Origin: Gemmatimonadales bacterium
GTDB lineage: Bacteria; Gemmatimonadota; Gemmatimonadetes; Gemmatimonadales; GWC2-71-9
DNA: 64,000 nucleotides
Direction of reading: 5' to 3'
Assembly (NCBI GenBank): GCA_040877595.1
Contig: JBBDNM010000053.1
Location: forward strand, 6,560-70,559
Part shown: piece after piece, positions 6,881 through 34,985 of the stretch
How the letters are laid out: the number at the start of each line of letters is the position of its first letter
How positions within the stretch are numbered: the first letter of the stretch is position 1
The notes under the pieces: model-generated
Told to the model about the DNA's origin: nothing
What the model saw: only the letters and a program-made list of their open reading frames with translations
Databases searched by the model: none
Position numbers and translations under genes: made by a program

Positions 6881-6960
6881 TGCTCCTGAGTCGCGCATCG
6901 GGGTTACCGAGAGGGCGGCCGGCCCGTATCTTCGGGGGTGGTGTTCCCCGGGAATCAGGC

Positions 6961-9615
6961 ATGAGCGAGCCGTTCGACCGACTCAAGGCGGCGATCGCGG
7001 ATCGGTACGCGATCGAACGCGAGGTGGGCAGTGGCGGCATGGCCACGGTTTACCTCGCCGACGACGCCCGACACCGCCGGAAGGTCGCGCTCAAGGTACT
7101 CCGGCCCGAGGTCGGCCAGACGCTCGGCCCCGAGCGGTTCTTCCGCGAGATTGAAATCGCGGCCCAGTTGCAGCACCCCAACATCCTGCCATTGCTCGAC
7201 TCCGGCGAGGCCGGCGGGTTCCTCTACTACGTCATGCCGTATGTGGACGGCCCGTCCCTGCGCGACCGCATCGCGCATCAGGGCGAGCTGCCGGTGCACG
7301 ACGCGGTGAAGATCCTGACCGAGGTGGTGGATGCGCTCGCCGCGGCGCACGCGCGGGGCATCGTCCACCGCGACATCAAACCCGACAACGTGATGCTCAC
7401 CGGGCGGCACGCCATGGTCACCGACTTTGGCGTGGCCAAGGCGCTGCACGAGGCCACCGGCAGGCAGAAGCTCACGACCGCCGGTGTGGCGCTCGGGACG
7501 CCGAGCTACATGGCGCCGGAACAGGCGGCGGGCGAGACCAACCTGGACGCGCGGGTGGACATCTACGCCGTCGGTTGCCTGGCGTACGAGATGCTCACCG
7601 GGCGCCCGCCGTTCACCGGCCCCACGGTTCAGGCCATTCTCGCGGCGCACATGACCGAGGAGCCCCAATCACTGCGCCAGCGGCGGGCAAGCGTGAGCCC
7701 GGCACTCGATCAGGTCGTGCTCAAGTGCCTGGCGAAACACTCGGCCGACCGGTGGCAGACCGCCGACGAACTCCTGCATCAGCTCGAGAGCCTGGTGACG
7801 CCGAGCGGCGGGGTGACCCCCACCGACACGCGGCCGGTCAAGGCAGCGACCGTGCGGGTTCCGAATACCCGCCTGCGGGTCGGCGTCGCGGTCGGTGCGC
7901 TCGTGATTGCCGTCGGCGCCTTCTATGCGCTTCAGGGCGGCGGCGGCCTGCCGCCGGTCACGTTCGGCGACACGCGGCAGATCACGCTGGACGAAGGCCT
8001 GGAGCTGGACCCGGCCCTGTCCCCGGACGGACGGTTCGTGGCGTACTCGGCCGGGCCGACCGAGCGCATGAGGGTCTTTGTGCGTTCCCTGGCGGGCGGG
8101 ACGCCGGTGCAGGTGTCCGGTACGCAACCCGGAGACCATCGCATGCCGCGGTGGTCGCCGGACGGATCGAACATCGCGTTCTCGACCCCCGCGGGCGTGT
8201 ATGTGACCCCCGCCCTTGGCGGCGCGGCCCGGTTGATAACGGACGTGGGAGCGTTCGGTACCTGGTCGCCCGACGGGCGGCGGCTGGCGTACGTGACCGG
8301 GAGCACCACGGCCTCGCGGCTCGAGGTGTCGGACGTGGGTGGGGGAGGGCGCCGGGTCATTGCCGAAGGATTCGACATCCATACGCTGTCCTGGTCGCCG
8401 GATGGGCGCTTCGTGGCCTACGTGTCGGGTAACTGGCAGTACATGTATGGCGGCACCGTGCTCGGCAATCTCGGCCCCAGCGCGATCCATGTGGTGCCGG
8501 CCGACAGCGGGACCGCCATCGCCGTCACGGATCGCGAGTTCCTGCATACGAGTCCGGTCTGGGCGCCGGACGGCCGCAGTCTCTACCTCGTCTCAACCCG
8601 CGACGGTGGCCGCGACATCTACCGCCTGCCCATCGCGGGAGACGGCAGCGCCGCCGGACCGATCGAGCGTCTCACCACCGGCCTGCACGCCGGCACGATA
8701 TCGTTTTCCGGCCACGGCGCCTTGCTGGCCTACTCGGTCTTCACCAACACGGCCAACATCTGGTCGGTGCCGGTGCCGGCGACGGGCTCCGTCTCCGTGT
8801 CGAGCGCCGTGCCCGTGACGCGCGGCAACCAGCACATCGAGGGGGTTGACCTCTCCGATGACGGCCGCTGGCTGGCGTTCGACTCGGACCGTGGCGGCAA
8901 CGTGGACATCTACCGGATGCCGGTGACCGGCGGCGACCCGATCCAGGTGACGACCCATCCGTCGGACGATTTCATCCCGGCCTGGTCACCGGACGGGCGG
9001 GAGATCGTGTTTCACTCGTGGCGCAACGGCCACCGCGATCTCTACGTCATCTCGGCCGAAGGCGGCGCCGAGGTCCGGCTGACCGACGATCCGGGCCAGG
9101 ACTTCTACGCGGATTTCACGCCGGACGGGCGCCGGATCGCGTTTCACTCCACCCGCACCGGCGTCAATGAACTCCATGTCATCGAGCGGACCGAGGTCGG
9201 ATGGGGTGAAGCGCGGTCCCTCGGAATTCGCGGCACGAACGCGCGGTGGTCACCCGACGGACAGTGGCTGCTCTACAACGTCGGGGGCGCAATCCGGCTG
9301 GTCCGACCCGACGGTACGGACCACCGGCTCCTGCTGGAACCGTTCGTGCGGGACGGCGTGCGGTGGGCCGCCTCGTATGCTCACTGGTCGCGCGACGGCC
9401 GGACGGTGCTGTTCAGGGGCAACAGCCCCGCCGGCGGACGGGCCTTCTGGAGCGTGCCCGCCTCGGGCGGAACACCGCGGATGACTGTGCGCTTCGACGA
9501 TCCGGACCGACCGAGTGGGCGTATGGAGTTCGCCACCGACGGCCGCACGCTCTATTTCACCGTGGACAACCGGCAGGCGGACATCTGGGTGGTGGCGCTG
9601 CGTTCCGGCCGCTAG
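6961..9615 (+). CDS. Ser/Thr protein kinase with TM segment and C-terminal PD40/TolB-like beta-propeller repeats
   Basis: GSGGMATVY, VALKVL, HRDIKPDNVM, DFGVAK, GTPSYMAPE kinase motifs. TM VGVAVGALVIAVGAFYAL. Many WSPDG repeats. ATG 6961 chosen over the longer ORF start. Confidence 0.9.
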   Translation: MSEPFDRLKAAIADRYAIEREVGSGGMATVYLADDARHRRKVALKVLRPEVGQTLGPERFFREIEIAAQLQHPNILPLLDSGEAGGFLYYVMPYVDGPSLRDRIAHQGELPVHDAVKILTEVVDALAAAHARGIVHRDIKPDNVMLTGRHAMVTDFGVAKALHEATGRQKLTTAGVALGTPSYMAPEQAAGETNLDARVDIYAVGCLAYEMLTGRPPFTGPTVQAILAAHMTEEPQSLRQRRASVSPALDQVVLKCLAKHSADRWQTADELLHQLESLVTPSGGVTPTDTRPVKAATVRVPNTRLRVGVAVGALVIAVGAFYALQGGGGLPPVTFGDTRQITLDEGLELDPALSPDGRFVAYSAGPTERMRVFVRSLAGGTPVQVSGTQPGDHRMPRWSPDGSNIAFSTPAGVYVTPALGGAARLITDVGAFGTWSPDGRRLAYVTGSTTASRLEVSDVGGGGRRVIAEGFDIHTLSWSPDGRFVAYVSGNWQYMYGGTVLGNLGPSAIHVVPADSGTAIAVTDREFLHTSPVWAPDGRSLYLVSTRDGGRDIYRLPIAGDGSAAGPIERLTTGLHAGTISFSGHGALLAYSVFTNTANIWSVPVPATGSVSVSSAVPVTRGNQHIEGVDLSDDGRWLAFDSDRGGNVDIYRMPVTGGDPIQVTTHPSDDFIPAWSPDGREIVFHSWRNGHRDLYVISAEGGAEVRLTDDPGQDFYADFTPDGRRIAFHSTRTGVNELHVIERTEVGWGEARSLGIRGTNARWSPDGQWLLYNVGGAIRLVRPDGTDHRLLLEPFVRDGVRWAASYAHWSRDGRTVLFRGNSPAGGRAFWSVPASGGTPRMTVRFDDPDRPSGRMEFATDGRTLYFTVDNRQADIWVVALRSGR

Positions 9616-23935: not shown

Positions 23936-24178
23936 ATGGCGCAGAACGGGCAGAAAAACACAGGCCTTGGTGCCGCCTACGCTCGGGCCGCACTAGGGAT
24001 GCAGTTTGCCGGTGGGGTGATGGTGTTTACCGGCGTCGGATATGCCCTGGACCGGTGGCTCGGCATCTTGCCGTGGCTCACGGTCGCGGGCGCCCTGATT
24101 GGCGCTACCTTAAGCTTTCTGAACGTGTTCTTCCGGATTCGCGCCGAAGACGAGGCCCGCAAGCAGGCCCGTAAGTGA
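23936..24178 (+). CDS. AtpZ/AtpI-family small membrane protein of the ATP synthase operon
   Basis: 80 aa. GVGYALDRWLGILPWLTVAGALIGATLSFLNVF is typical of the AtpZ family. GTGA overlap with the next ORF. Confidence 0.6.
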   Translation: MAQNGQKNTGLGAAYARAALGMQFAGGVMVFTGVGYALDRWLGILPWLTVAGALIGATLSFLNVFFRIRAEDEARKQARK

Positions 24179-24519
24179 TCGCGGCCTTGCTGGGTGGCCT
24201 GGGCCTCACCGCCATCATGGTGGCGCTGTTGTGGGCCGTCTGGGGTGTCGATACGCTGGTCGCGGCGGTGACGTTCGGCCTGGTGGCCACGGCCATCCAG
24301 ATTGCCTCGGCGTGGCTGGTTCAGCCGGTAGCGCACGCGCCATTCCCGCTGTTGATTCGGCGGTGGAGTATCGGGATGGGGTTGCGGGTGCTGGGGATTG
24401 CCGCCTTCGGCATCGCCAGCTGGACCGTACCGGAGCTGTTCCCGCCGCTACCCGCAGCCTTCGCGTACCTGGGGGTGGTTGTCCCCCTGCTGTTTCTGGA
24501 GATCCGGTTCCTCAGATGA
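24175..24519 (+). CDS. ATP synthase protein I-like hydrophobic protein
   Basis: 114 aa with 4 hydrophobic helices. Position is immediately upstream of atpB, with an ATGA overlap. Confidence 0.5.
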   Translation: MIAALLGGLGLTAIMVALLWAVWGVDTLVAAVTFGLVATAIQIASAWLVQPVAHAPFPLLIRRWSIGMGLRVLGIAAFGIASWTVPELFPPLPAAFAYLGVVVPLLFLEIRFLR

Positions 24520-25388
24520 TGCAGCAAGAAGCGCACAACGCAGAACTGAACATCGGCGAGATGGTCATGCACCATACCGCCGACGCGTATGCCATTGGTA
24601 TCGAGCCATTCTTCTCGTATCACTGGAACCGGTGGCCCGACCTGCATCTGGGCCCCCTGACGGTCAACCTGACCCCCACCAAGCACGTCATCTTCCTGGT
24701 GCTGGCGGCGGCCCTCGTCTTCCTGACCATGTGGATGGCGGGACGCTCGCTCACGCGCCAGCGTGCCCACGAGAAAGCGCCGAAGGGGTTTGCCAACGCG
24801 ATCGAAGCCATGGTGCTGTTCGTCCGCAATGACATGGCGATTGCCAACATCGGCCACGACGGCGCCAAGTTCGCGCCCTACATCATGGCCGTGTTCTTCT
24901 TCATTCTGTACATGAACGTGCTGGGCCTGATGCCGCACGGCGCGACCGCGACGGGCAACCTCGCCGTGACCGGCGCCCTGGCCGTCATCACGATGGTCAC
25001 GGTCGAGATCGGCGGGATGCTGAAGCTCGGGCCCAAGGGGTACATGCACACCATCTTCCCGAACATCCCGGGTGTGAAAGGGCCGATGGCGGTCGTGATG
25101 TCCATCGCCATGGCGCCCATCGAGGTAATCGGCAAGCTGGTGAAGCCGTTTGCCTTGGCTGTGCGGTTGTTCGGCAACATGACGGCCGGCCATTTCGTGA
25201 TCCTGTCGCTGTTCGGCGTGGTGTTCCTGTTCGGGACGCTGGGTGTCGCGAGCTGGGGCATCGGCATCGCGACCGCCCTGCTGGTGGTCGGCATCATGCT
25301 GCTCGAGCTGTTTGTCGGGTTCTTGCAGGCGTATGTGTTCGCGCTGCTGTCGGCGGTCTTTATCGGGCTGATGCAGCACGAGCACTAG
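24516..25388 (+). CDS. atpB: F-type ATP synthase Fo subunit a
   Basis: Conserved LAVRLFGNMTAGH (essential Arg) and LQAYVFALLS motifs. 290 aa. Confidence 0.9.
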   Translation: MMQQEAHNAELNIGEMVMHHTADAYAIGIEPFFSYHWNRWPDLHLGPLTVNLTPTKHVIFLVLAAALVFLTMWMAGRSLTRQRAHEKAPKGFANAIEAMVLFVRNDMAIANIGHDGAKFAPYIMAVFFFILYMNVLGLMPHGATATGNLAVTGALAVITMVTVEIGGMLKLGPKGYMHTIFPNIPGVKGPMAVVMSIAMAPIEVIGKLVKPFALAVRLFGNMTAGHFVILSLFGVVFLFGTLGVASWGIGIATALLVVGIMLLELFVGFLQAYVFALLSAVFIGLMQHEH

Positions 25389-25392
25389 AAGA

Positions 25393-25448
25393 GTGCGTAG
25401 TGGGGGGTGCGCGGAGGCCCCCCCACCACGCACCTCCGCACCACGCAC
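25393..25448 (+). other. GC-rich element with mutually exclusive hairpins directly after atpB
   Basis: GTGCGTAGTGGGGGG (25393-25407) is complementary to CCCCCCACCACGCAC (25419-25433; 14/15). GGTGCGCGGAGG (25406-25417) pairs with CCTCCGCACC (25433-25442). CCACGCAC is duplicated (25426-33 and 25441-48). Confidence 0.5.
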
Positions 25449-25632
25449 ATTCGAGTCCGCGTCGGCGCTTCGTCGTTGACTCGATAGGTACCCAGCCACG
25501 GAGCTGGGGAAGCCCATCGCCCGCAGGGGCATTGGTGGGCCGCCAGACACACCGACCGCCGGGAGACGGTCGCCTGTGCATGGGAAGCGCAACTGACACG
25601 CAATCTCCTCAAGGATCACAGGAGCAGGACAC

Positions 25633-25926
25633 ATGTTGATGAATCTGCTGGTAGCGGTGCAGGACACGGCCCAGGCGGCCACGGAAGTGGTCCACCTGTC
25701 GGTCGGCGACGGTCTGGCCCAGCTCGGCGCCGGTATCGGCATCGGGCTCGTCATTGTCGGCGCCGGTATTGGTTTGGGCCGCATCGGTGGCCAGACGGCC
25801 GAAGCCATGGCGCGTCAGCCGGAAGCCGGTGCCGACATTCGCGGCGCCACCCTGATTCTCGCGGTGCTGCTCGAAGGCGCCACGATCATCGCGCTCGTGT
25901 TCGCGCTGCTCTTCAAGCTGGCGTAA
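25633..25926 (+). CDS. atpE: F-type ATP synthase Fo subunit c
   Basis: GAGIGIGLVIVGAGIGLGRIGG glycine-rich helix 1, ARQPE loop, and carboxylate helix LLEGATIIALVFALL. Confidence 0.9.
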   Translation: MLMNLLVAVQDTAQAATEVVHLSVGDGLAQLGAGIGIGLVIVGAGIGLGRIGGQTAEAMARQPEAGADIRGATLILAVLLEGATIIALVFALLFKLA

Positions 25927-25935
25927 GGACAACCC

Positions 25936-26481
25936 ATGCTGACGGTATTCCTGGCCGCTCTTGCGGCTGCTCAGGGCGGCGGGTTCAGCTCGCCGTTCGA
26001 GGTGAACTTCGGCCTGTTCTTCTGGACCTGGGTCGTGTTCATCATCCTGTTCTTTGCGCTCAAGCGGTTTGCGTGGCCGGCCATTCTCCAGGCCACCGAG
26101 GCGCGCGAGCGGAAAATTGCGCAGCAGTTGGCCGAAGCGGAGCAGGCCGCCGTTGAGGCCAAGGCCGCCCTGGAAGAGCATCGCAAGTTGCTGCAGGGAG
26201 CGCGCCAGGAAGCCGTCCAGCTGGTGCAGGACGCCCGCGCGGTGGGTGAGAAGGAACGCGAGGGCTTGTTGGCCAAGGCACGCGCCGAGCAGGAGCAGTT
26301 GATCGAGCGGGCCAAGCGGGAAATTGCGACGGAGCGGGACCGGGCCATCGCAGACCTGCGCAAGGAAGCGGTCGAGATCTCGTTGGCCGCCGCCTCGCGT
26401 CTGATCGAGCAGCGGCTCACCGCTGACGCCGATCGCAAGATTGTCACCGAGTATCTCGCCTCGATCGGGAAGGGCGCGTGA
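25936..26481 (+). CDS. atpF: F-type ATP synthase Fo subunit b
   Basis: N-terminal TM (FWTWVVFIILFFAL) followed by a long charged coiled coil rich in A/E/R/K. Operon position fits. Confidence 0.85.
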   Translation: MLTVFLAALAAAQGGGFSSPFEVNFGLFFWTWVVFIILFFALKRFAWPAILQATEARERKIAQQLAEAEQAAVEAKAALEEHRKLLQGARQEAVQLVQDARAVGEKEREGLLAKARAEQEQLIERAKREIATERDRAIADLRKEAVEISLAAASRLIEQRLTADADRKIVTEYLASIGKGA

Positions 26482-27014
26482 GAGAAGGCACGATCGCCCG
26501 GAACTACGCCGGGGCGCTGTACGAGCTCGGGGAGCGCGACGGCGGCACGGAAGCGTACGCCAACGTGCTTGAGGTGCTGGCCGGTGTCATTGCCGTGGAT
26601 CCGACCGTGCGCCTGATGCTCGAGTCGCCGCGGGTCCCGAAAGAGACCAAGGCCGACCTGCTGGCGCGCGCGCTGACCGGTCGCACGTCCGAGGTGCTCA
26701 TCAAGTTTCTCCGGGCCGTCGTGAAGCGCGGCCGCCAGAACCTGCTGGGGGTGATCAGCCGGGAATACAGCGCGCTGGTGGACATCAAGTTCAACCGCGT
26801 CCACGCCGGCGTCACGATGGCGCGCGTGCCCGATGCGACGCTCCAGAACGCGGTGCGTGAAGCGCTCACCAATGCCATTGGCAAGGAAGTCATCCCGCAC
26901 TTCCGCGAGGACCCGACCATTCTCGGCGGCGTGCTGGTCCGGGTGGACGACCGCATCATGGACGGCTCGGTGCGGCGACGGTTGGCCCGGCTCCGGAGAC
27001 AGATGCTCTCTTGA
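26478..27014 (+). CDS. atpH: F-type ATP synthase F1 subunit delta (OSCP)
   Basis: ARNYAGALYELG N-terminus and C-terminal ILGGVLVRVDDRIMDGSVRRRL, typical of OSCP. GTGA overlap with atpF. Confidence 0.85.
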   Translation: MREGTIARNYAGALYELGERDGGTEAYANVLEVLAGVIAVDPTVRLMLESPRVPKETKADLLARALTGRTSEVLIKFLRAVVKRGRQNLLGVISREYSALVDIKFNRVHAGVTMARVPDATLQNAVREALTNAIGKEVIPHFREDPTILGGVLVRVDDRIMDGSVRRRLARLRRQMLS

Positions 27015-27886
27015 TCGGGTTCATCGGGCTCGGTGCCATCGGCACGCCGATGGCGAAGCATGTCGCGCAGGCGTTTCCCACCACAGTCTGGAATCGCACC
27101 ACCGCCAAAGCCACGGCGTTTGCCGCGGCGCACGGCGCCACGGCGGCGCCGGATGTCGCGTCCCTCGTGGCCGCCTGCGATATCGTGATCACGTGTCTGC
27201 CCGTTTCGTCGGATGTCGCGAGCGTGATCGCCTCGGCGGGCACGGCGTGGCATGCGGGCCAACTGCTGGTGGACTGCACGTCAGGCGATCCGGCCGGCTC
27301 CCGCGCGAATGCCGCCACGCTCGCCACCTTCGGTGTGGGATTTGTGGATGCGCCGGTCTCGGGCGGTGTGGGTGGCGCGGAGCAGGGGACGCTCACCGTC
27401 ATGCTTGGTGGGGAGGAACCGTGGATCACCAGGGCACGTGCCGTCGTAGCGCCCTTTGCGGCCAAGGTGGTGCATGTGGGCCCGGTAGGGTGTGGCCACG
27501 CCCTCAAGGCGGTCAACAACGCCCTGCTGGCCCTCAACGTGATTGCGGCCGGGGAAGGACTCGCTGCGCTGGTCAAGCTGGGGGTGCCCGCCGCCCAGGC
27601 CGTTGAGGTGATCAATGCGTCGAGTGGCCGGTCGAATGTCACCGAGAATCTGATCCCCGAACGCGTGCTCACCGGCGCGTGGCCCCGCACGTTTTCACTC
27701 GCGTTGCTTGACAAGGATGTGGGTGTGGCGCTTGACGTGTTGGCCGATGCCGGGGTTGATTCGGAGCTGTACCCGGCGTTGAAACAGGCGTTGGCCGAGG
27801 CACGGAAGGCATTGGATCCCGGTGCCGATCACGTCGAGGCCATCCGCGTGATCGAACAGCGCAGCGGCACGACTATCCGACGGTAG
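27011..27886 (+). CDS. NAD(P)-dependent beta-hydroxyacid dehydrogenase (3-hydroxyisobutyrate dehydrogenase family)
   Basis: [16 protein letters not shown] Rossmann motif, DAPVSGG, and [11 protein letters not shown] family motifs. TTG start in a TTGA overlap with the atpH stop. Confidence 0.85.
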
Positions 27887-29216
27887 CGGTCTCCACGCGG
27901 TTGCGGCCGTTCTGCTTCGCGCGATAGAGCGCGCGATCCGCGGCCGCCACGAGGTCTTCGGGGCGGTCGGTCAATTCGGGCTTGAGCGTGGCGACACCGA
28001 TACTGATGGTCACCGGGCCGGTCCCGCGCGCGTTCACGATGCCCAGCCCTTCGACGCTCTTGCGTAGTGCTTCGGCCACGCCCCGCGCGCCGTCCACGGT
28101 GGTGCGTGGCAAGACAATGGCAAACTCCTCGCCTCCATAACGGGCCACGAAGTCGGCCGGTCGCGCCACGGCATCCTCGAGCGCGGCCGCGATGCGCTGC
28201 AAGCACACATCGCCGGCCTGGTGACCGTAGGCGTCGTTGTACGGCTTGAAGTGATCAATGTCGGCCATGAGCAGGGCGATCTCGTCATGTTCACGCTGGC
28301 CACGGCGCCACTCGTCATCCATGCGCTGGTCGAACGCGCGCCGGTTGGCGATGCCGGTCAGCGCGTCCTGCGTCGAGATGGCTTTCAGGCGTTCCCACGC
28401 GTCGGCGCGCAGGCGTTGTTCCCGAGCCAGCTGCCGGAGCGCCGGACCGAACATGCCGAACCCGATGACCAGAAGCACCGCCACCATCCCGGCAAGCATC
28501 ACGCGCGTCGCGCGTTCCGCGCGCGCAATGGACGCGTCAGCTTCGGCGGTTAGGCGGTCTACCAGGGCGTTGAGGGTGGCCGATGGGCCCCCGCCGGCCG
28601 CGTTGATGACGATGCGTACGGGCCGCGCGCCGCGCGTGAGAAGGCTGTCGGCGCCGCCCGCCACGTCGCGCAGGGCCTCCAGATACAAGTGAATGTTCCG
28701 ATCGAGCTGCAGCGGGTCCTCGAAGAACGCCCGTTGCTGCTCGGAGGTAAGCTGCGCCTCGTGCACGTAGGCGTTGTGCCACGTGTCCACGGAATCGACA
28801 ATGGCGAGCAGGCGGTGTCGCAGCGAGTCGCGCTGGAGCGGTGCCGCATCGAGCAGTTCGTGGGTCACCACGGCGGCCTGTTGCACCAGCACGCGTTGCC
28901 GAGCGGCGCGCTCAATCAGTTCGGCGCGGTCCTGGGCCCGGGACATCAGCACCCGCGTGGCCACGTATTCGCCGCCCGCGATCATGGCGACCAGGGCGAG
29001 GGCGCCAAGAAATCGGTAGCGCAGGGTCGCCGGGGACGGCCCCGGCGGCAGGTCGGGTATCGGGTCGGAGCGACGGTTCAGAAGCTGAACCCCGCAGCCA
29101 CGTTGATATGGTTGGCCAGGCGGCGCCCGACCGGAATCGGGTAGTCCGTGGTGATCCGGCGGAACGTCAGCGCGAGGACCATCGGCGCCGGTCGCCAATG
29201 CACGTGGGCTTCCCAT
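27873..29216 (-). CDS. Membrane-anchored diguanylate cyclase (GGDEF); start uncertain
   Basis: [17 protein letters not shown] motif, [16 protein letters not shown], and an N-terminal TM/helical sensor region. The canonical ATG 29216 overlaps the porin gene by 139 nt. CTG 29081 sits in a CTGA overlap (see findings). Confidence 0.85.
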
Positions 29217-30322
29217 GTCCTGTTGTGGAGCCGGCCCGTGGCCGGGTCCACGTCCGCATCGTCCGGGTCGTCAAACCCGATGCCGCCACCCCACTCCCAG
29301 GCGGGCGCCGGGAAAAGATTCAACTGGGCCCACCCGCCGCGGGTACGCACCGGAATGTCGCCGGGTCCGAGGGTCTGGCCCGCGCCGCCACCGCCCAGTA
29401 CACCCAGCGCCTGGCCGGCAAACGCCTCGCCCCGCAGCTCGAGGAAGCGTCCAAACCGCATTCGAGCCGAGCCGGCCACGGCGCTGGAGACCAGGGAGGA
29501 ATCCTCGCTCACCGCGATCCAGCCGTAGTGTCCTCCAAGACTGATCTCGCCCTCGGAGTTGCCCATCCAGCGCACCAGCGTGCGGCCTTGCACGAACGGG
29601 CGTCCGGTGCGCTCGGCGCGGTCGGGCTGCGTGAGGAACGTGCCCTGCGCGCTGCCATCGGTGGGCGCGATCGCAGCCACTTCGAGTCCCACGTGTACCC
29701 GGTCACCGGCGCCGAGCCCGGCGCGCACCTGTGGCAGCCACAGCCAGAGGTTGCCGGCCAGCGTGAACTCCGGTAGTCCGTCGGCGGCGAGGGAGGACGG
29801 GTTCAGCTCCAGGATGGGCGGCGCGTCCTGGCCCACCATGATCCAGGCGTTGGTCCATGCCAGGTCGGCGCGCAGGCGGCGCAACCGCGCGAGCGGGAAG
29901 TACCGCGAACCGGCCAGCTGGCCGCCAAAGAAGTCAAGATCGACCTCACCGGTGAACGCCGCGCCGAGCACGTCGGGATGCGCGGCGAGCAGCGCGATGC
30001 GGGTCTGGCGGGCGGTTGCCCCGGCATGCGGTACCGGCAGACCGCCCGGCGGGTCGGGCGGAACGACGACCTGGGGTGTCTCACTGGTGTTGACCTTCGC
30101 GTTGTTGAAGAACGCGTTGACCAGCACCGTCCCCGTGAGTTGGAGCTGCAGGCCGCTCCGGCTGGTGACGGCTTGGCCGGCCTGCTCAGCCAGCTGTTGT
30201 TGTAGAATTGCCACCACGGCTTCGAGCCGGCGGACGCGGTCGGCCAGCACCGAATCCGGCTCCTGGGCGCCAAGTGTTGCGGCGCACAGTGGGAACCAGG
30301 CCAACAGGTATCTGTACCTCAC
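29078..30322 (-). CDS. Outer-membrane beta-barrel porin-like protein with N-terminal coiled coil
   Basis: Signal peptide [20 protein letters not shown] from GTG 30322. Coiled segment ([19 protein letters not shown]). Alternating barrel-like strands with terminal AAGFSF. Confidence 0.6.
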
Positions 30323-30386
30323 GTGGGACCTCGCATTGCCATTTGACGCCCTCTGGGGCTCAACGGTAACCTTGCCGGAGATATCC

Positions 30387-31064
30387 ATGCTACTCCCTTG
30401 GCGATTTGTGGCCGTAATGGCCGTCACATCGGTTGGCCTGCCCCTCACGGCCCAGCAACCCGTGCGCGGCTCAGTCGTGGTGCTCGACCGCGACCAGCGG
30501 CCGGCCCGCGATGTGGACGAAGCGGTCGTCTGGCTGGTACGGGAACGTGCTGCGCGTGCCGCCAGGCCCGACACAGCGGAGATCCTCACGCGGCGCCGGG
30601 AGTTCGTGCCGCGGGTAGCCGTTGTCACGCCGGGGAGCGCCGTGCGTTTTCCCAACCACGACAGCTTCAATCACAACGTCTTTTCGCTTTCCGAGGAGGC
30701 GCCGTTCGACCTGGGTCTGTACGGCCGCAACGAAGTCCGGGCGACGGCCTTTACCCGACCGGGTGTCATTCGCGTGTACTGCAATGTGCATGCGACCATG
30801 AGCGCGTTTGTCGTGGTCGTGCCGGAGCAACTCTTCGCGCGCCCTGCCGCCGATGGCAGTTTCAGTATCGTTAATGTACCGCCGGGCCGGTACACCCTGC
30901 GAGCGTGGCACGAACGCGCGGCGCAGGTCATTGAGCGCGAGATCACGGTCACGGCGCAGGGCACCGATCTTGTGGCCCTCACCCTTGATGCGAGTGGTTT
31001 CCGTCCCGAACCCCACCTGAACAAGTATGGCCAGCCGTATCGCGCGGCAGGCCGACGGTACTAG
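30387..31064 (+). CDS. Secreted cupredoxin-like protein with C-terminal carboxypeptidase-regulatory-like beta-sandwich (often annotated 'methylamine utilization protein')
   Basis: Signal peptide MLLPWRFVAVMAVTSVGLPLTAQQ. FPNHDSFNHNVF ... VYCNVHATM (His ... Cys-x2-His-x2-Met). DGSFSIVNVPPGRYTLRAW motif. Confidence 0.6.
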   Translation: MLLPWRFVAVMAVTSVGLPLTAQQPVRGSVVVLDRDQRPARDVDEAVVWLVRERAARAARPDTAEILTRRREFVPRVAVVTPGSAVRFPNHDSFNHNVFSLSEEAPFDLGLYGRNEVRATAFTRPGVIRVYCNVHATMSAFVVVVPEQLFARPAADGSFSIVNVPPGRYTLRAWHERAAQVIEREITVTAQGTDLVALTLDASGFRPEPHLNKYGQPYRAAGRRY

Positions 31065-31065
31065 C

Positions 31066-33081
31066 ATGCGCATCGGCCTCGGTGCCAGAATCTTCCTTGC
31101 CACCACGTTGATTGTTGTTGTCGTGCTCGGTGGAGCGCTGCTCCTCACCGGACGGCAGGCGGGACGCGCCGCGGACCAGTCACTGATTGCCGCACTGGAG
31201 GCCGCCGGATCGTCGGTGCGGGACGCCTTGCAGGCGCGGGAAGACCGCCTGCGGCAGGTCACCGCGACGATCGCGCGCGTGCCTGCCAACGTTTCGTATG
31301 TCGAAACGGCCGTGCGCCAGGGCGATCGCTCGTCCCTCGTGGGGCAGGCACAAGAGTTTGCCGATCAGATCGGGGCCGACTGGGTGCTGATCACCGATGC
31401 TGACGGCATCCTCCAGGCCTCGACGCTCGACCCCAACGCCGAAGGCGAACCACTCGGCGAGGGTGCCTTGATCGGTATTCCGCTCAGCGAAGGGCGTAGC
31501 GCTGACGGCCTGTGGATCGAGGTAGGACCCGACGGCGCCGACATGCCGTACCAGGCAGTGGCGGTCCCGTTGCTGGCGCCCGGCGGAACCGCCCTCTACG
31601 GCGTGATTGTCGCGGCAATTGCCATTGATGAGGGTGTGGCGCAGGTGCTCAAGGAAAACACCGCCGCCGAGATTCTCTTCTTTACGCTGGACACGCTTGG
31701 TGTTGCGCGGCCGGTGGTGAGTACACGCCCCGAGCAGGCGGTGGACTCGGTGCTGGCGTCGTTCGGCGCGGACAGCCTGTTCACGGCGATGGGCTATACG
31801 TGGCTGTCGGCGCCGGTGGCCGGCGATCGCCTGGTAGGCGCCGTTGGTCCGCTCCTCTCGGCCGCGGACGAGCCCCTGGGCGGCTTCGTGGCCATGCGCT
31901 CGCGCGCCGCGGAGATGGCCACATTCAGCCTCCTGCGCCAGACATTGTTCATCGCCTTTGGCGCGGGGCTTGTGCTGGCGCTGGTGGCCTCGTTCATCTT
32001 GGCGCGCACGGTCACCCGGCCGGTGCGCGCGCTGGTGGATGTCACGCGCCGCGTGCGCGAAGGGCAGTTCTCGGGGGACATCCCGACCGGCGGCAAGGAC
32101 GAAGTGGGCGAACTCGCGACGGCGTTCCAGGCCATGGTGCAGGAACTGCGCGACAAGCAGGCGCTGGTGGACTACTTGAGCCAGGCGGGTGGCGCGACGG
32201 TCCAGCTCGCAACCCCCGACCAAGGCACGATGTCGAGCCGGCTCGATGTGGGGGGCGTGTTCGCCGGGCGCTACGAGATCACGAAGGTGCTGGGACGGGG
32301 CGGTATGGGCGTGGTGTACCGTGCGCGTGACCGCGAGCTCGACGAGGTGGTGGCCATCAAGACCCTGCTGCCCGAGGCGCTGGATCCCACCGGTACGTCC
32401 CTCGAGCGGTTCAAGCAGGAAGTCCGGCTGGCCCGGCGCATCTCGCACCGGAACGTCGTCCGCCTGCACGACTTCGGCGAAGTGGATGGGACGTACTACA
32501 TCACCATGGAGTACGTCGAAGGCACCAATCTCAAGGATCTGATCCGCCGTCGCGGGCGCTTGCCCGTGGGCGCGGCCCTGGCGATTGGCAAGCAGTTGTG
32601 CCGCGCACTCGAAGTGGCGCATGACGAGGGGGTCATCCATCGCGATATCAAGCCGCAGAACATCGCGGTGGACCCAGGCGGCGTGGTGAAGGTGATGGAC
32701 TTCGGGATTGCGCGGTTGGCCAAGGCGCCCGCCGTGGGTGAGGGTCTTACCGCCATGGGGATGACCGTGGGCACACCCGAGTACATGGCGCCCGAGCAAC
32801 TGATGGGCGACGAAGTGGACGCGCGGGCGGACCTGTATGCGGCAGGCGTCGTGCTGTTTGAGTGTGTGACCGGTCGCATGGTGTTCGAAGCGACCAGCTT
32901 GCCCGCGCTGGTGGCCAAGCACCTGGAGGAGGCGCCGACCGACCCGCGTTCCCTCAATCCCGCAGTGCCCGAAGCTCTGGCGCAGATCATCCTCCGTGCC
33001 CTGGCCAAGGATCGTGCAACGCGCTGGCCGTCGGCCACCGAGCTGGCGCTGGCGCTCGACGCGCTGGGGCGGGACTCCTGA
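31066..33081 (+). CDS. Sensor Ser/Thr protein kinase: periplasmic sensor domain - TM - HAMP - C-terminal kinase
   Basis: TM1 IFLATTLIVVVVLGGALLL, about 260-aa extracytoplasmic region, TM2 LFIAFGAGLVLALVASFIL. HAMP (RPVRALVDVTRRVREGQFSGDIP...ELATAFQAMVQEL). Kinase motifs GRGGMGVVY, VAIKTL, HRDIKPQNI, DFGIAR, GTPEYMAPE. Confidence 0.85.
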   Translation: MRIGLGARIFLATTLIVVVVLGGALLLTGRQAGRAADQSLIAALEAAGSSVRDALQAREDRLRQVTATIARVPANVSYVETAVRQGDRSSLVGQAQEFADQIGADWVLITDADGILQASTLDPNAEGEPLGEGALIGIPLSEGRSADGLWIEVGPDGADMPYQAVAVPLLAPGGTALYGVIVAAIAIDEGVAQVLKENTAAEILFFTLDTLGVARPVVSTRPEQAVDSVLASFGADSLFTAMGYTWLSAPVAGDRLVGAVGPLLSAADEPLGGFVAMRSRAAEMATFSLLRQTLFIAFGAGLVLALVASFILARTVTRPVRALVDVTRRVREGQFSGDIPTGGKDEVGELATAFQAMVQELRDKQALVDYLSQAGGATVQLATPDQGTMSSRLDVGGVFAGRYEITKVLGRGGMGVVYRARDRELDEVVAIKTLLPEALDPTGTSLERFKQEVRLARRISHRNVVRLHDFGEVDGTYYITMEYVEGTNLKDLIRRRGRLPVGAALAIGKQLCRALEVAHDEGVIHRDIKPQNIAVDPGGVVKVMDFGIARLAKAPAVGEGLTAMGMTVGTPEYMAPEQLMGDEVDARADLYAAGVVLFECVTGRMVFEATSLPALVAKHLEEAPTDPRSLNPAVPEALAQIILRALAKDRATRWPSATELALALDALGRDS

Positions 33082-33650
33082 TGCTCGGCGACGGCGACCG
33101 CCGGGCCTTCTTCCGCGACACGCTGGGCCGCGCCGCCCGCGCGCTGGCGGAACACGCCGAGCAGCGGGTGGTCTCGCAGCACTACTTCCGGCCGCCTGGC
33201 GCGGTGGCGGAAGTCGCGTTCCTGACCCTGTGCACGCGGTGCGGCGAATGCGAGCGGGTCTGCCCGCCCCAGGCGCTGGTGCCGTTGCCTCCATCGGCGG
33301 GGCTCGCGGCTGGCACGCCGACGTTTGACCCCAAGGTGCAACCCTGCACGGTCTGTGACGATATTCCGTGTGCCCGCGTGTGCCCCACCGGCGCGTTGGT
33401 GGTGCCGTCCAAGGGGTGGGACGGCTACCGGATGGCGACGCTCACCTTGGTCTCCGAAACGTGTATCGTGTTTCACGGAGTCGCGTGTGGCGTCTGCGCG
33501 CGGGTCTGCCCGGTGGGCGACGAGGCGCTGAGCCTGGATGACGAAGGCCGTCCAGTGATCAAGATGGAAGGCTGTGTGGGATGCGGTGTGTGCGTGCGGG
33601 CGTGCGTGTCGTCGCCGCGATCCCTGATCCTTGAACCGTTGGAGAGTTGA
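33081..33650 (+). CDS. Tat-exported 4x[4Fe-4S] ferredoxin-type protein (MauM/NapG-like)
   Basis: Twin-arginine motif DRRAFFRD. Four cluster motifs CTRCGECERVCP, CTVCDDIPCARVCP, C..ACGVCARVCP and CVGCGVCVRAC. 1-nt TGATG overlap with the kinase. Confidence 0.8.
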   Translation: MLGDGDRRAFFRDTLGRAARALAEHAEQRVVSQHYFRPPGAVAEVAFLTLCTRCGECERVCPPQALVPLPPSAGLAAGTPTFDPKVQPCTVCDDIPCARVCPTGALVVPSKGWDGYRMATLTLVSETCIVFHGVACGVCARVCPVGDEALSLDDEGRPVIKMEGCVGCGVCVRACVSSPRSLILEPLES

Positions 33651-34001
33651 ATGCCGGACGTTCCGTACACCGTAGAGAAACCGTGGGGCCACGAGTTGAT
33701 CTGGGCCCGCACGGACCGCTACGTAGGGAAGATCCTCCATATCGAACCCGGACACGTGTTGAGCCTGCAGTATCACAACAAGAAGGACGAGACCATCCAC
33801 GTCCTCAAGGGCGAGATCATCTTCCGCGTGAAAGTGGGCGACGAGCTCACGGAGCGCCAGATGCACGAGGGCGAGAGCTATCACATCACGCCGCTCACCG
33901 TGCACCAGATGGAGGCGGTCGTGGCGTCGGATCTCATGGAAGTCTCCACGCCGGAGATTGATGACGTGGTGCGGCTGCAGGACCGCTACGGGCGGACCTG
34001 A
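33651..34001 (+). CDS. Cupin-domain protein (type II phosphomannose-isomerase-like)
   Basis: KPWGHELIWA...LSLQYHNKKDETIHVLKGE...HQMEA cupin motifs. 116 aa. Abuts both neighbours with 0-nt gaps. Confidence 0.75.
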   Translation: MPDVPYTVEKPWGHELIWARTDRYVGKILHIEPGHVLSLQYHNKKDETIHVLKGEIIFRVKVGDELTERQMHEGESYHITPLTVHQMEAVVASDLMEVSTPEIDDVVRLQDRYGRT

Positions 34002-34985
34002 GTGAAAGTCATCATTCCACTGGCGGGGAAGGGCACGCGCCTCCTTCCCCTCACGCGTCACGTCCCCAAACCATTGCTCAAGGTGGCCGGCCGGCCCGTG
34101 CTCGATTGGGTGATGGACAGCCTGAGCCCGCTCGACCTGGACGAACTCATCTTCATCACGGGGCACCTCAAGGAAGACGTCGAAGCGCATGTCCGCCACC
34201 GCTACGACATCCCGTCGCGCTTTGTGGAGCAAAAGGTGCAGGACGGTACTGCGGGCGCCGTGGCGCTCGCGCGCGACTACGTCGACGGACCGGTATTGAT
34301 CGTGTTTGTGGACACGTTGTTCGATGCGGACCTGACGCTGGTCAACCGGCTGGACGCTGACGGCATCATCTGGGCCAAGGAAGTGGAGGACTACCAGCGG
34401 TTTGGCGTGGTGGTGACAGACGAGCAGGGCTACATGCGCCGCATCGTGGAAAAGCCCAGTGAGCCTGTTTCGAAGCTCGCCAATATCGGATTGTACTACA
34501 TCCGGGACTGGCAGACGCTCTATGCCGGCATTGCCGACACCATGGCCCGTCCGCAACAGAAGGGCGAGTGGTATCTCACCGACGCGTTCCAGTACATGAT
34601 TGATCAGGGCCGCCGCATCTATACGGCGGAAGTGGCGGGCTGGTACGACTGCGGCAAGGTGGAGACGGTGCTCGCCACCAACCAGCACCTGCTCGAGCAC
34701 GGGCACGCGCGCCGGCCGGCCGCCGTCCCGGACGGGGTCACCATCGTCGATCCGGTTCACATCGAGGATGGCGTCAGCCTGAGCCGGTGCCAGATCGGGC
34801 CGAACGTGACGATCGAAGCCGGTGCGACGATCGACTGTGCCACGGTGGCGCACACGATCGTGGGCGCCGGCGCCACCGTACATTACGGCAACGTGGTGGG
34901 CTCCCTGATAGGGGACGGTGTGGTGGTCAGGGGCGACCTGACGGGCATGGTGGTGACGCGGGACGAGGCGGCGAAAGCGCGTTAG
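34002..34985 (+). CDS. Sugar-phosphate nucleotidyltransferase with C-terminal left-handed beta-helix
   Basis: IIPLAGKGTRLLPLTRHVPKPLLKVAGRP signature. Hexapeptide-like repeats at the C-terminus. GTG start. Confidence 0.85.
   Translation: MKVIIPLAGKGTRLLPLTRHVPKPLLKVAGRPVLDWVMDSLSPLDLDELIFITGHLKEDVEAHVRHRYDIPSRFVEQKVQDGTAGAVALARDYVDGPVLIVFVDTLFDADLTLVNRLDADGIIWAKEVEDYQRFGVVVTDEQGYMRRIVEKPSEPVSKLANIGLYYIRDWQTLYAGIADTMARPQQKGEWYLTDAFQYMIDQGRRIYTAEVAGWYDCGKVETVLATNQHLLEHGHARRPAAVPDGVTIVDPVHIEDGVSLSRCQIGPNVTIEAGATIDCATVAHTIVGAGATVHYGNVVGSLIGDGVVVRGDLTGMVVTRDEAAKAR

Follow-up and report, generated by a model that had tools for sequence, protein, structure and literature searches.

A cupredoxin gene conserved beside a double-Cache receptor kinase gene in Gemmatimonadales, and a candidate envelope-spanning sensory module

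The closest described systems to the locus studied here pair a signalling enzyme with one or more protein partners. In LuxP-LuxQ and NspS-MbaA, a periplasmic partner is read by the tandem PAS/Cache domain of an inner-membrane signalling enzyme. The YfiBNR (TpbB) system consists of the outer-membrane YfiB, the periplasmic YfiR, and the inner-membrane HAMP-GGDEF protein YfiN, and its periplasmic component is redox-sensitive. H-NOX and NosP are haem co-sensors, mostly cytoplasmic, that are encoded beside histidine kinases or GGDEF/EAL enzymes. We know of no receptor that has a cupredoxin as its input partner, and most extracytoplasmic Cache receptors are, to our knowledge, without a known signal. 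Here, we analyse a stretch of 64,000 nucleotides (nt) from a Gemmatimonadales bacterium (assembly GCA_040877595.1, contig JBBDNM010000053.1, positions 6,560 to 70,559; hereafter the window), in which the gene of a putative secreted cupredoxin (gene A) immediately precedes that of a receptor Ser/Thr kinase (gene B), itself followed by a ferredoxin gene (gene C), with a porin-like gene and a GGDEF gene on the opposite strand. The original prediction had taken A, B, and C for one operon in which periplasmic redox proteins feed the kinase. We find that the adjacency of A and B is conserved across the order, and that the ferredoxin belongs to another conserved unit. On balance, we lean towards a real unit of three genes, i.e., an envelope-spanning sensory module made of the porin-like protein, A, and B, in which A would be the periplasmic co-sensor of B.

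As in LuxPQ and NspS-MbaA, a partner gene adjoins that of a receptor with two transmembrane segments, a double PAS/Cache domain, and a cytoplasmic enzyme output, and here the double domain would likewise read the partner, instead of or in addition to a free ligand; the adjacency of partner and receptor is conserved independently of the output (77 of 77 Gemmatimonadales loci, four types of output, 16 of 16 plasmid records). The locus differs in that the partner is a predicted type-1 cupredoxin instead of a solute-binding protein, the partners having no sequence relationship, and in that the output is a Hanks kinase reached via HAMP. With YfiBNR it would share a layout over three compartments, in which an enzyme of the inner membrane, linked to HAMP, stands alongside a modulator in the periplasm and a component in the outer membrane. 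There is no homology, however: YfiB is a Pal-like lipoprotein instead of a barrel, YfiR is no metalloprotein, and no YfiR-like gene is present here. What the locus has in common with H-NOX and NosP is that the gene of a small metalloprotein, redox- or gas-reactive, is linked to those of signalling enzymes whose outputs are interchangeable. Unlike them, A would be a copper protein, periplasmic, and paired with a Cache domain. The logic of all these systems appears similar; none includes a cupredoxin and none is homologous to the A-B system. In the full-text literature, we found no description of a module made of a cupredoxin and a dCache receptor.

Linkage of the cupredoxin and receptor genes in Gemmatimonadales

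The conservation of the locus was assessed in a neighbourhood survey, in which an alignment of A was scanned against one genome per species (GTDB) and the best 80 of 292 relatives were kept. These were all from Gemmatimonadales, and their loci were probed by tblastn with the proteins of the window (denominators are evaluable loci). A B-type sensor lies directly downstream of A in 77 of 77 loci, a kinase domain follows in 66 of 66, and a homologue of the divergent porin-like gene stands beside A in 62 of 72. From the stop of A to the start of B, most distances fall in the range of -7 to +31 nt. The adjacency of A and B exceeds chance, since it recurs in all 77 evaluable species-level loci. The remainder of the proposed operon fared differently: the cupredoxin-kinase-ferredoxin trio is not conserved as neighbours, because a ferredoxin gene is found downstream of the kinase in just 2 of 59 loci, and a cupin gene is present at the A locus in 11 of 59. 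The functional tie between cupredoxin and kinase, by contrast, seems to hold, and probably more generally than had been proposed, given the constant linkage, the tight coupling, and the recurrence of the cassette in other phyla.

Gene A encodes a cupredoxin domain (residues ~60-145), a CarboxypepD_reg-like β-sandwich (~147-200), and a conserved C-terminal tail. Its N-terminus, MLLPWRFVAVMAVTSVGLPLTAQQ, looks like a Sec signal. The motif VYCNVHATM was confirmed, and an alignment of 20 homologues from Gemmatimonadota shows the copper ligands H96, C132, H135, and M138 to be invariant; the same His and Cys-x2-His-x2-Met are also invariant in the homologues from Alpha- and Betaproteobacteria and from metagenomes. 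This set of ligands is that of an electron-transfer site. The AlphaFold2 (AF2) model of A (pLDDT 89.5, pTM 0.84) was matched by Foldseek to pseudoazurin, amicyanin, and plastocyanin (E~1e-6, TM-score on the target 0.55-0.80, root-mean-square deviation ~2 Å), the cupredoxin domain of NirK being also among the matches of the first domain. At the sequence level, a phmmer search of the PDB gave plastocyanin 1iuz (E=0.004) and, weakly, pseudoazurin. Pfam gave weak matches of the CarboxypepD_reg type and none at E<=0.01 for the cupredoxin part, yet many homologues carry precomputed PF00127 or PF13473. The protein database holds 3,698 relatives of A, of which the top ones are all from Gemmatimonadota and are often named 'plastocyanin' by the Joint Genome Institute. 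From its sequence and model, A is a putative secreted type-1-copper cupredoxin fused to a CarboxypepD_reg-like β-sandwich, with copper binding predicted, so that the cupredoxin assignment originally made is borne out by motif, alignment, and predicted fold.

The resemblance of A to amicyanin, pseudoazurin, and plastocyanin concerns the fold and the set of ligands, including a ligand loop as short as that of amicyanin; A differs by its additional β-sandwich, its C-terminal tail, and a receptor as genomic partner. The tail contains a motif, HLNKxGxPY..GRRY, which is invariant across the 20 aligned homologues and restricted to the kinase-linked Gemmatimonadota members of the family; it may be a docking element. 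A may be related to MauL, as suggested by the product name 'methylamine utilization protein' that NCBI's Prokaryotic Genome Annotation Pipeline (PGAP) gives to the proteobacterial homologues. No NCBIfam model matched A, and no mau or methylamine dehydrogenase (MADH) genes were found near A in the window or in the other surveyed loci, as the original prediction had noted for this neighbourhood. Its analogy with the electron-transfer pair of amicyanin and MauM survives for the fold of A and for nothing else.

The product of gene B starts with a transmembrane segment (residues ~1-33), followed by a double-Cache domain (~40-285), a second transmembrane segment (~287-320), HAMP (312-363), a linker, and a Hanks kinase domain (403-654). 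Hydropathy places the two transmembrane segments on either side of the periplasmic domain, or, delimited more narrowly, at residues ~5-30 and ~290-312. Pfam identified HAMP (58 bits) and Pkinase (176.6 bits), and the Hanks motifs are intact (GRGGMG, VAIK, HRDIKPQN, DFG, APE). The dCache_3 match of B itself is weak (20.8 bits vs a cutoff of 25.7); 47 of 62 relatives match this family at E<=1e-5, the best at 8e-18. The AF2 model of residues 1-370 (pLDDT 92.2) shows a long helix and two PAS-like modules of the double-Cache type, and its Foldseek neighbours are the dCache domains of PctA, Tlp3, and TlpA, together with DctB, HK1S-Z8, and the periplasmic domain of LuxQ. In the alignment of the sensor there is no conserved Cys, His, or Met able to bind a metal by itself. 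These features describe B as a putative receptor Ser/Thr kinase with two transmembrane segments, a periplasmic double-Cache domain, and a HAMP relay, in agreement with its first annotation as a sensor-HAMP-Ser/Thr kinase. The catalytic domain has all the canonical motifs, like those of PknB and PknD, which carry PASTA domains and a β-propeller, respectively; B differs from both in its two transmembrane segments, its periplasmic double-Cache domain, and a HAMP relay of the sort found in histidine kinases and chemoreceptors. The sensor-domain family is small, with 379 representatives at E<=0.001 among 1.84 billion. When the 62 closest full-length relatives were scanned for outputs, 52 had Pkinase, 3 a cyclase, and 1 GGDEF-EAL, and the architecture of B is common to at least 52 clusters at 50% identity.

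The third putative component, the porin-like protein, has an N-terminal signal-like segment and a helical stretch, and ends in ...AAGFSF. It had no match in Pfam, NCBIfam, or the PDB, even with a profile of 17 sequences, and we infer from its sequence features that it is an outer-membrane β-barrel. In every lineage a gene of outer-membrane type adjoins A, and these genes are not homologous between lineages: elsewhere the partner is a DUF3034 protein, a 418-amino-acid (aa) protein with YWF at its end, or a protein of ~310 aa that weakly matches OMP_b-brl. Homology of the porin-like protein with the 418-aa protein (locus L098) was considered and rejected, as none was found by BLASTP or hhalign. 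Compared by Pfam only, the Gemmatimonadales porin gave no DUF3034 match at E<=10.

Related cassettes in other phyla

A tblastn search of plasmids with A returned 56 records, whose product is often named 'methylamine utilization protein' by PGAP. In Caballeronia, Burkholderia, Comamonas, and Novosphingobium, the gene of a ~780-aa dCache_3-HAMP-GGDEF-EAL protein lies 5-35 nt after the A-like gene, and the sensor and HAMP of this protein are homologous to those of B (26% identity over 394 aa, E=5e-24). Among the plasmid records that have the sensor domain, an A-like gene directly adjoins the sensor gene in 16 of 16. The usual companions of the proteobacterial pair are a DUF3034 gene and a gene for a group-1 truncated haemoglobin, the products of which both have signal peptides. 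The last residue of the DUF3034 proteins is aromatic, which, together with the signal peptide, makes them probable outer-membrane barrels. The two companions were seen together at L091, L095, L096, L097, L139, L151, L157, L159, L168, L178, and L180; a secreted truncated haemoglobin beside a cupredoxin and a cyclic di-GMP enzyme hints at the sensing of O2 or NO.

Two other outputs came from a word search with the sensor domain, which gave 23 matches with many HAMP-like candidates and led to the cassettes linked to histidine kinases and to cyclases. In the histidine-kinase version, on a metagenome contig, the genes encode the 418-aa YWF protein, an A-like protein, a dCache_3-HisKA-HATPase protein, and a sigma54 response regulator. 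In the cyclase version, on other contigs, a dCache_3-HAMP-class III cyclase gene comes before the A-like gene and overlaps it by 4 nt. A scan of metagenomes seeded with members from outside Gemmatimonadota returned 80 loci, 64 of them evaluable, and a sensor gene was within 2.5 kilobases (kb) of the A-like gene in 52 of these 64. The output encoded on the contig was a cyclase in 19 cases, GGDEF-EAL in 15, and a histidine kinase in 1, and it fell off the contig in 14.

Some loci depart from this organisation. Local duplications of the cassette are seen at L159 (894-6353), where two tandem dCache-HAMP-GGDEF-EAL genes flank one A-like gene, and at L136 (428-2524), where two A-like genes surround a DUF3034 gene. 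In Sinorhizobium meliloti pSymA (L093) and a Phyllobacterium plasmid (L094), a diverged A-like protein has an N-terminal extension and the same copper ligands; its gene is placed between those of an SCO copper chaperone and a metallophosphoesterase, with hemA, groL, and cbb3 oxidase genes near. This subfamily is probably tied to the oxidase or to copper handling.

The ferredoxin unit and the layout of the locus

Gene C heads a conserved unit of its own. Its family is widespread in Gemmatimonadota (60-70% identity), and in 7 of 8 contexts centred on the ferredoxin, all on other contigs, it comes first in the series ferredoxin, cupin, sugar-1-phosphate nucleotidyltransferase (NTP-transferase): L088, L089, L090, L183, L184 (with L185 and L186), and L187, the gene being alone in L087. 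A cupredoxin or a related kinase was beside it in 0 of the 8. The backbone of L089, L183, and L184 comprises the ATP synthase genes a-c-b-delta, HIBADH, a LemA cluster, ferredoxin, cupin, NTP-transferase, and HMGL and/or DUF885. This backbone is shared by the window, where its ATP synthase and HIBADH part is a convenient anchor for comparing what has been placed ahead of the ferredoxin unit; the position of the LemA cluster is occupied there by the GGDEF gene, the porin-like gene, A, and B. Ferredoxin and kinase are thus in contact because two units have come to lie side by side: the ferredoxin, cupin, and NTP-transferase genes make up a conserved unit distinct from the sensor module, and in this lineage they are found directly downstream of it. 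Membership of the ferredoxin in that module was accordingly rejected on both the 80-locus survey and the eight ferredoxin-centred contexts. Across Gemmatimonadales, the family presents itself as a NapF/NapG-like polyferredoxin with a vestigial twin arginine, encoded directly upstream of a split phosphomannose-isomerase (PMI)-like cupin and a sugar-1-phosphate nucleotidyltransferase.

The description of C as a twin-arginine ferredoxin of the MauM/NapG type holds in part. The protein is 42% identical to NapG of Escherichia coli and 33% to NapF, keeps all 16 Cys (enough for four [4Fe-4S] clusters), and carries the RPPGA motif found in NapG, NapF, and MauM. Its NCBIfam scores are below the family cutoffs (109 bits vs 178.85 for TIGR00397 MauM/NapG and 131 vs 269 for NapG, with 59 for NapF). 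DRRAFFRD is present, but the hydrophobic h-region that should come after the twin arginine is absent, so the label 'twin-arginine (exported)' goes too far: the family has there a charged amphipathic stretch, with a longest uncharged run of 5-7 residues, vs 19 in E. coli NapG, and a maximal 13-residue Kyte-Doolittle value of at most 0.7, vs 1.95. NapF is cytoplasmic, and the resemblance of C to NapF in this stretch makes export by the twin-arginine translocation (Tat) pathway unlikely; we rejected such export, the h-region being absent, and C is probably cytoplasmic like NapF. Membership of the ferredoxin in a nearby Nap-type complex was rejected as well, because NapA, B, C, D, and H of E. coli had no tblastn match in the 64-kb window; the eight other ferredoxin contexts contained no NapH/MauN partner and no NapA or MADH genes. 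C therefore differs from NapG, NapF, and MauM in its scores, in the missing Tat h-region, and in its partners, a cupin and a sugar-nucleotidyltransferase. There is an annotation trap here: a NapG-like ferredoxin gene that abuts a kinase gene in one genome can be the start of a juxtaposed separate unit.

On the other side of the locus, the GGDEF gene is a lineage-specific neighbour outside the conserved module. A GGDEF gene adjoins the porin-like gene in 1 of 80 loci (L013), and the part proposed for the GGDEF enzyme in a redox/metal sensing node is not upheld. At L003, L004, L007, L011, L030, L051, and L080, a Pkinase gene comes after the porin-like gene on the same strand. These loci are from the clade of Gemmatimonadales that has the cupin and NTP-transferase genes after the kinase, and at L003 this Pkinase gene also encodes a PEGA domain; in the window, its place is taken by the GGDEF gene. 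It seems that a second signalling enzyme, of variable kind, is encoded beyond the porin-like gene. Regarding the ferredoxin-positive loci, L068 keeps the order of kinase then ferredoxin, and in L013 the ferredoxin gene is 3 kb past the kinase gene and directly upstream of that of the cupin.

A listing of the open reading frames (ORFs) of the window confirmed all of them, with their boundaries, their junctions, and the divergent porin-GGDEF pair, just as first described (Table 1). No terminator-like site was found on the plus strand between the five plus-strand genes, which, with junctions this short, makes their co-transcription by read-through plausible. With its putative start ATG at 29216, the GGDEF ORF overlaps the 3' end of the porin-like gene by 139 nt (29078-29216); there is no in-frame ATG, GTG, or TTG at residues 43-77, and the next ATG is within the first transmembrane helix. 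The DNA sequencing runs that hold sequence of the window are sediment and soil metagenomes.

Table 1. Features of the locus and its surroundings, in window coordinates.
Feature	Position	Strand	Remarks
Gene A, cupredoxin	30387-31064	+	ATG to TAG
Gene B, receptor Ser/Thr kinase	31066-33081	+	1 base between the TAG of A and the ATG of B
Gene C, ferredoxin	33081-33650	+	TGATG, 1-nt overlap with the stop of B
Cupin, PMI C-terminal-like	33651-34001	+	0-nt gap after gene C
Sugar-1-phosphate nucleotidyltransferase	34002-34985	+	0-nt gap after the cupin gene
Porin-like ORF	29078-30325	-	Divergent from A, about 61-64 nt apart
Membrane GGDEF diguanylate cyclase ORF	27873-29216	-	Downstream of the porin-like ORF; identified with Pfam/NCBIfam; GGEEF and RxxD I-site
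F-type ATP synthase a, c, b, delta genes	24175-27014		
HIBADH-like dehydrogenase	27011-27886		After the ATP synthase run
Second Hanks-type kinase domain in the window	6946-7794	+	~40% identity to the kinase domain of B

Roles considered for the cupredoxin

The pair of A and the double-Cache domain is constant while the cytoplasmic enzyme changes, and A is thus most simply a part of the input. The linkage of the genes suggests that A is probably the periplasmic co-sensor of the Cache receptor, reporting either redox state or copper. Such a module could work as follows: 1) A would reside in the periplasm with one type-1 copper bound via H96, C132, H135, and M138; 2) the double-Cache domain of B would read the state of A by protein-protein contact, as LuxQ reads LuxP; 3) the state that is read would be, as first choice, the Cu(I)/Cu(II) redox state and, as second, the occupancy by copper; 4) the second transmembrane segment and HAMP would pass the change on to the kinase domain, leading to the phosphorylation of cytoplasmic targets; and 5) the stimulus would enter through the outer-membrane protein, or A would be anchored by it, the family of this protein differing from lineage to lineage. 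Redox state comes before occupancy because the set of ligands is one of electron transfer and because the proteobacterial version includes a secreted haemoglobin. More tentatively, and with reservations that keep us from calling it probable, the blue-copper protein could be a dedicated redox or copper co-receptor for the dCache_3(-HAMP) family across phyla, with interchangeable outputs: Hanks kinase, GGDEF-EAL, class III cyclase, and histidine kinase. An outer-membrane barrel would usually be part of the system, and in Proteobacteria also the secreted truncated haemoglobin; the haem co-sensors H-NOX and NosP would then have a counterpart based on copper and placed in the periplasm.

Several observations weigh against a role of A as sensor input. 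Conserved adjacency would also be expected if A were a regulated or co-functioning periplasmic component. The dCache domains usually bind small ligands directly, and B may have a ligand pocket of its own. In 12 of the 64 metagenome loci that were evaluable, the A-like gene is without a sensor gene, and so it is in the rhizobial plasmid subfamily, which is encoded with SCO, metallophosphoesterase, hemA, and cbb3 oxidase genes; the family therefore has sensor-independent roles. The barrel is predicted from sequence features only, and among RNA sequencing runs we found none holding sequence of the window. Part of this evidence fits a different arrangement, in which A and the outer-membrane protein are the working pair, for example in copper handling or uptake or in carrying electrons through the periplasm to an acceptor outside the cell or in the outer membrane, while the Cache domain senses a small ligand alone and the receptor adjoins because it responds to, or is co-regulated with, the process of A and its partner. 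We consider this unlikely, though it accounts well for the pairing of A-like genes with outer-membrane-type genes even where the sensor is absent (in the sensor-free loci, the A-like gene comes after a ~310-aa gene, in one case with a weak OMP_b-brl match), for the rhizobial relatives beside SCO, hemA, and cbb3 oxidase genes, and for the direct binding of small molecules that is common in dCache domains (PctA, Tlp3, and DctB are among the Foldseek neighbours). It accounts less well for the fact that across four types of output the constant part is A plus dCache_3, the pattern expected of an input module, for the complete association on the sensor side (16/16), and for the tight translational coupling in all lineages.

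Alternatively, A could act in the periplasm as a redox enzyme or mediator by which the true signal carrier is made, removed, or reduced again, the Cache domain reading that carrier or its product; in Proteobacteria, A would then be the electron donor of the secreted truncated haemoglobin, itself the sensor of O2 or NO. In Beta- and Alphaproteobacteria and at many metagenome loci, the A-like gene and that of the GGDEF-EAL receptor are accompanied by this group-1 haemoglobin and DUF3034, as such a scheme would lead one to expect, but the module has no haemoglobin gene in Gemmatimonadales or in the cyclase- and histidine-kinase-linked versions. The haemoglobin is for this reason accessory rather than core, and we judge a mediator role improbable. 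The scheme from which the analysis started, whereby a periplasmic copper carrier and a periplasmic Fe-S ferredoxin both feed the HAMP-linked kinase and the GGDEF enzyme completes a redox/metal node, now seems very improbable. The tight packing of the five plus-strand genes with no terminator-like site between them, and the recurrence of the kinase-then-ferredoxin order in L068, are in its favour; the neighbourhood survey has largely refuted it, since the ferredoxin follows the kinase in just those two loci out of 59 (the L013 copy being 3 kb off and next to the cupin), heads the cupin and NTP-transferase genes in 7/8 contexts with the kinase beside it in 0/8, and is unlikely to be periplasmic in view of the uncharged run of 5-7 residues vs 19 after the twin arginine, while the GGDEF gene is beside the porin-like gene in a single locus out of 80.

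If the role of A as a co-sensor of the Cache receptor is correct, it would constitute a new bacterial way to read the redox or copper status of the periplasm. The GGDEF-EAL version is found in culturable strains of Caballeronia, Burkholderia, Comamonas, and Novosphingobium, which makes the model testable; Gemmatimonadales are an order of soil and sediment, known mostly from metagenome-assembled genomes. A co-sensor role would give a function to a widespread family now named 'methylamine utilization protein', and also to the unstudied Cache-HAMP Hanks kinases with two transmembrane segments that are conserved in the surveyed Gemmatimonadales.

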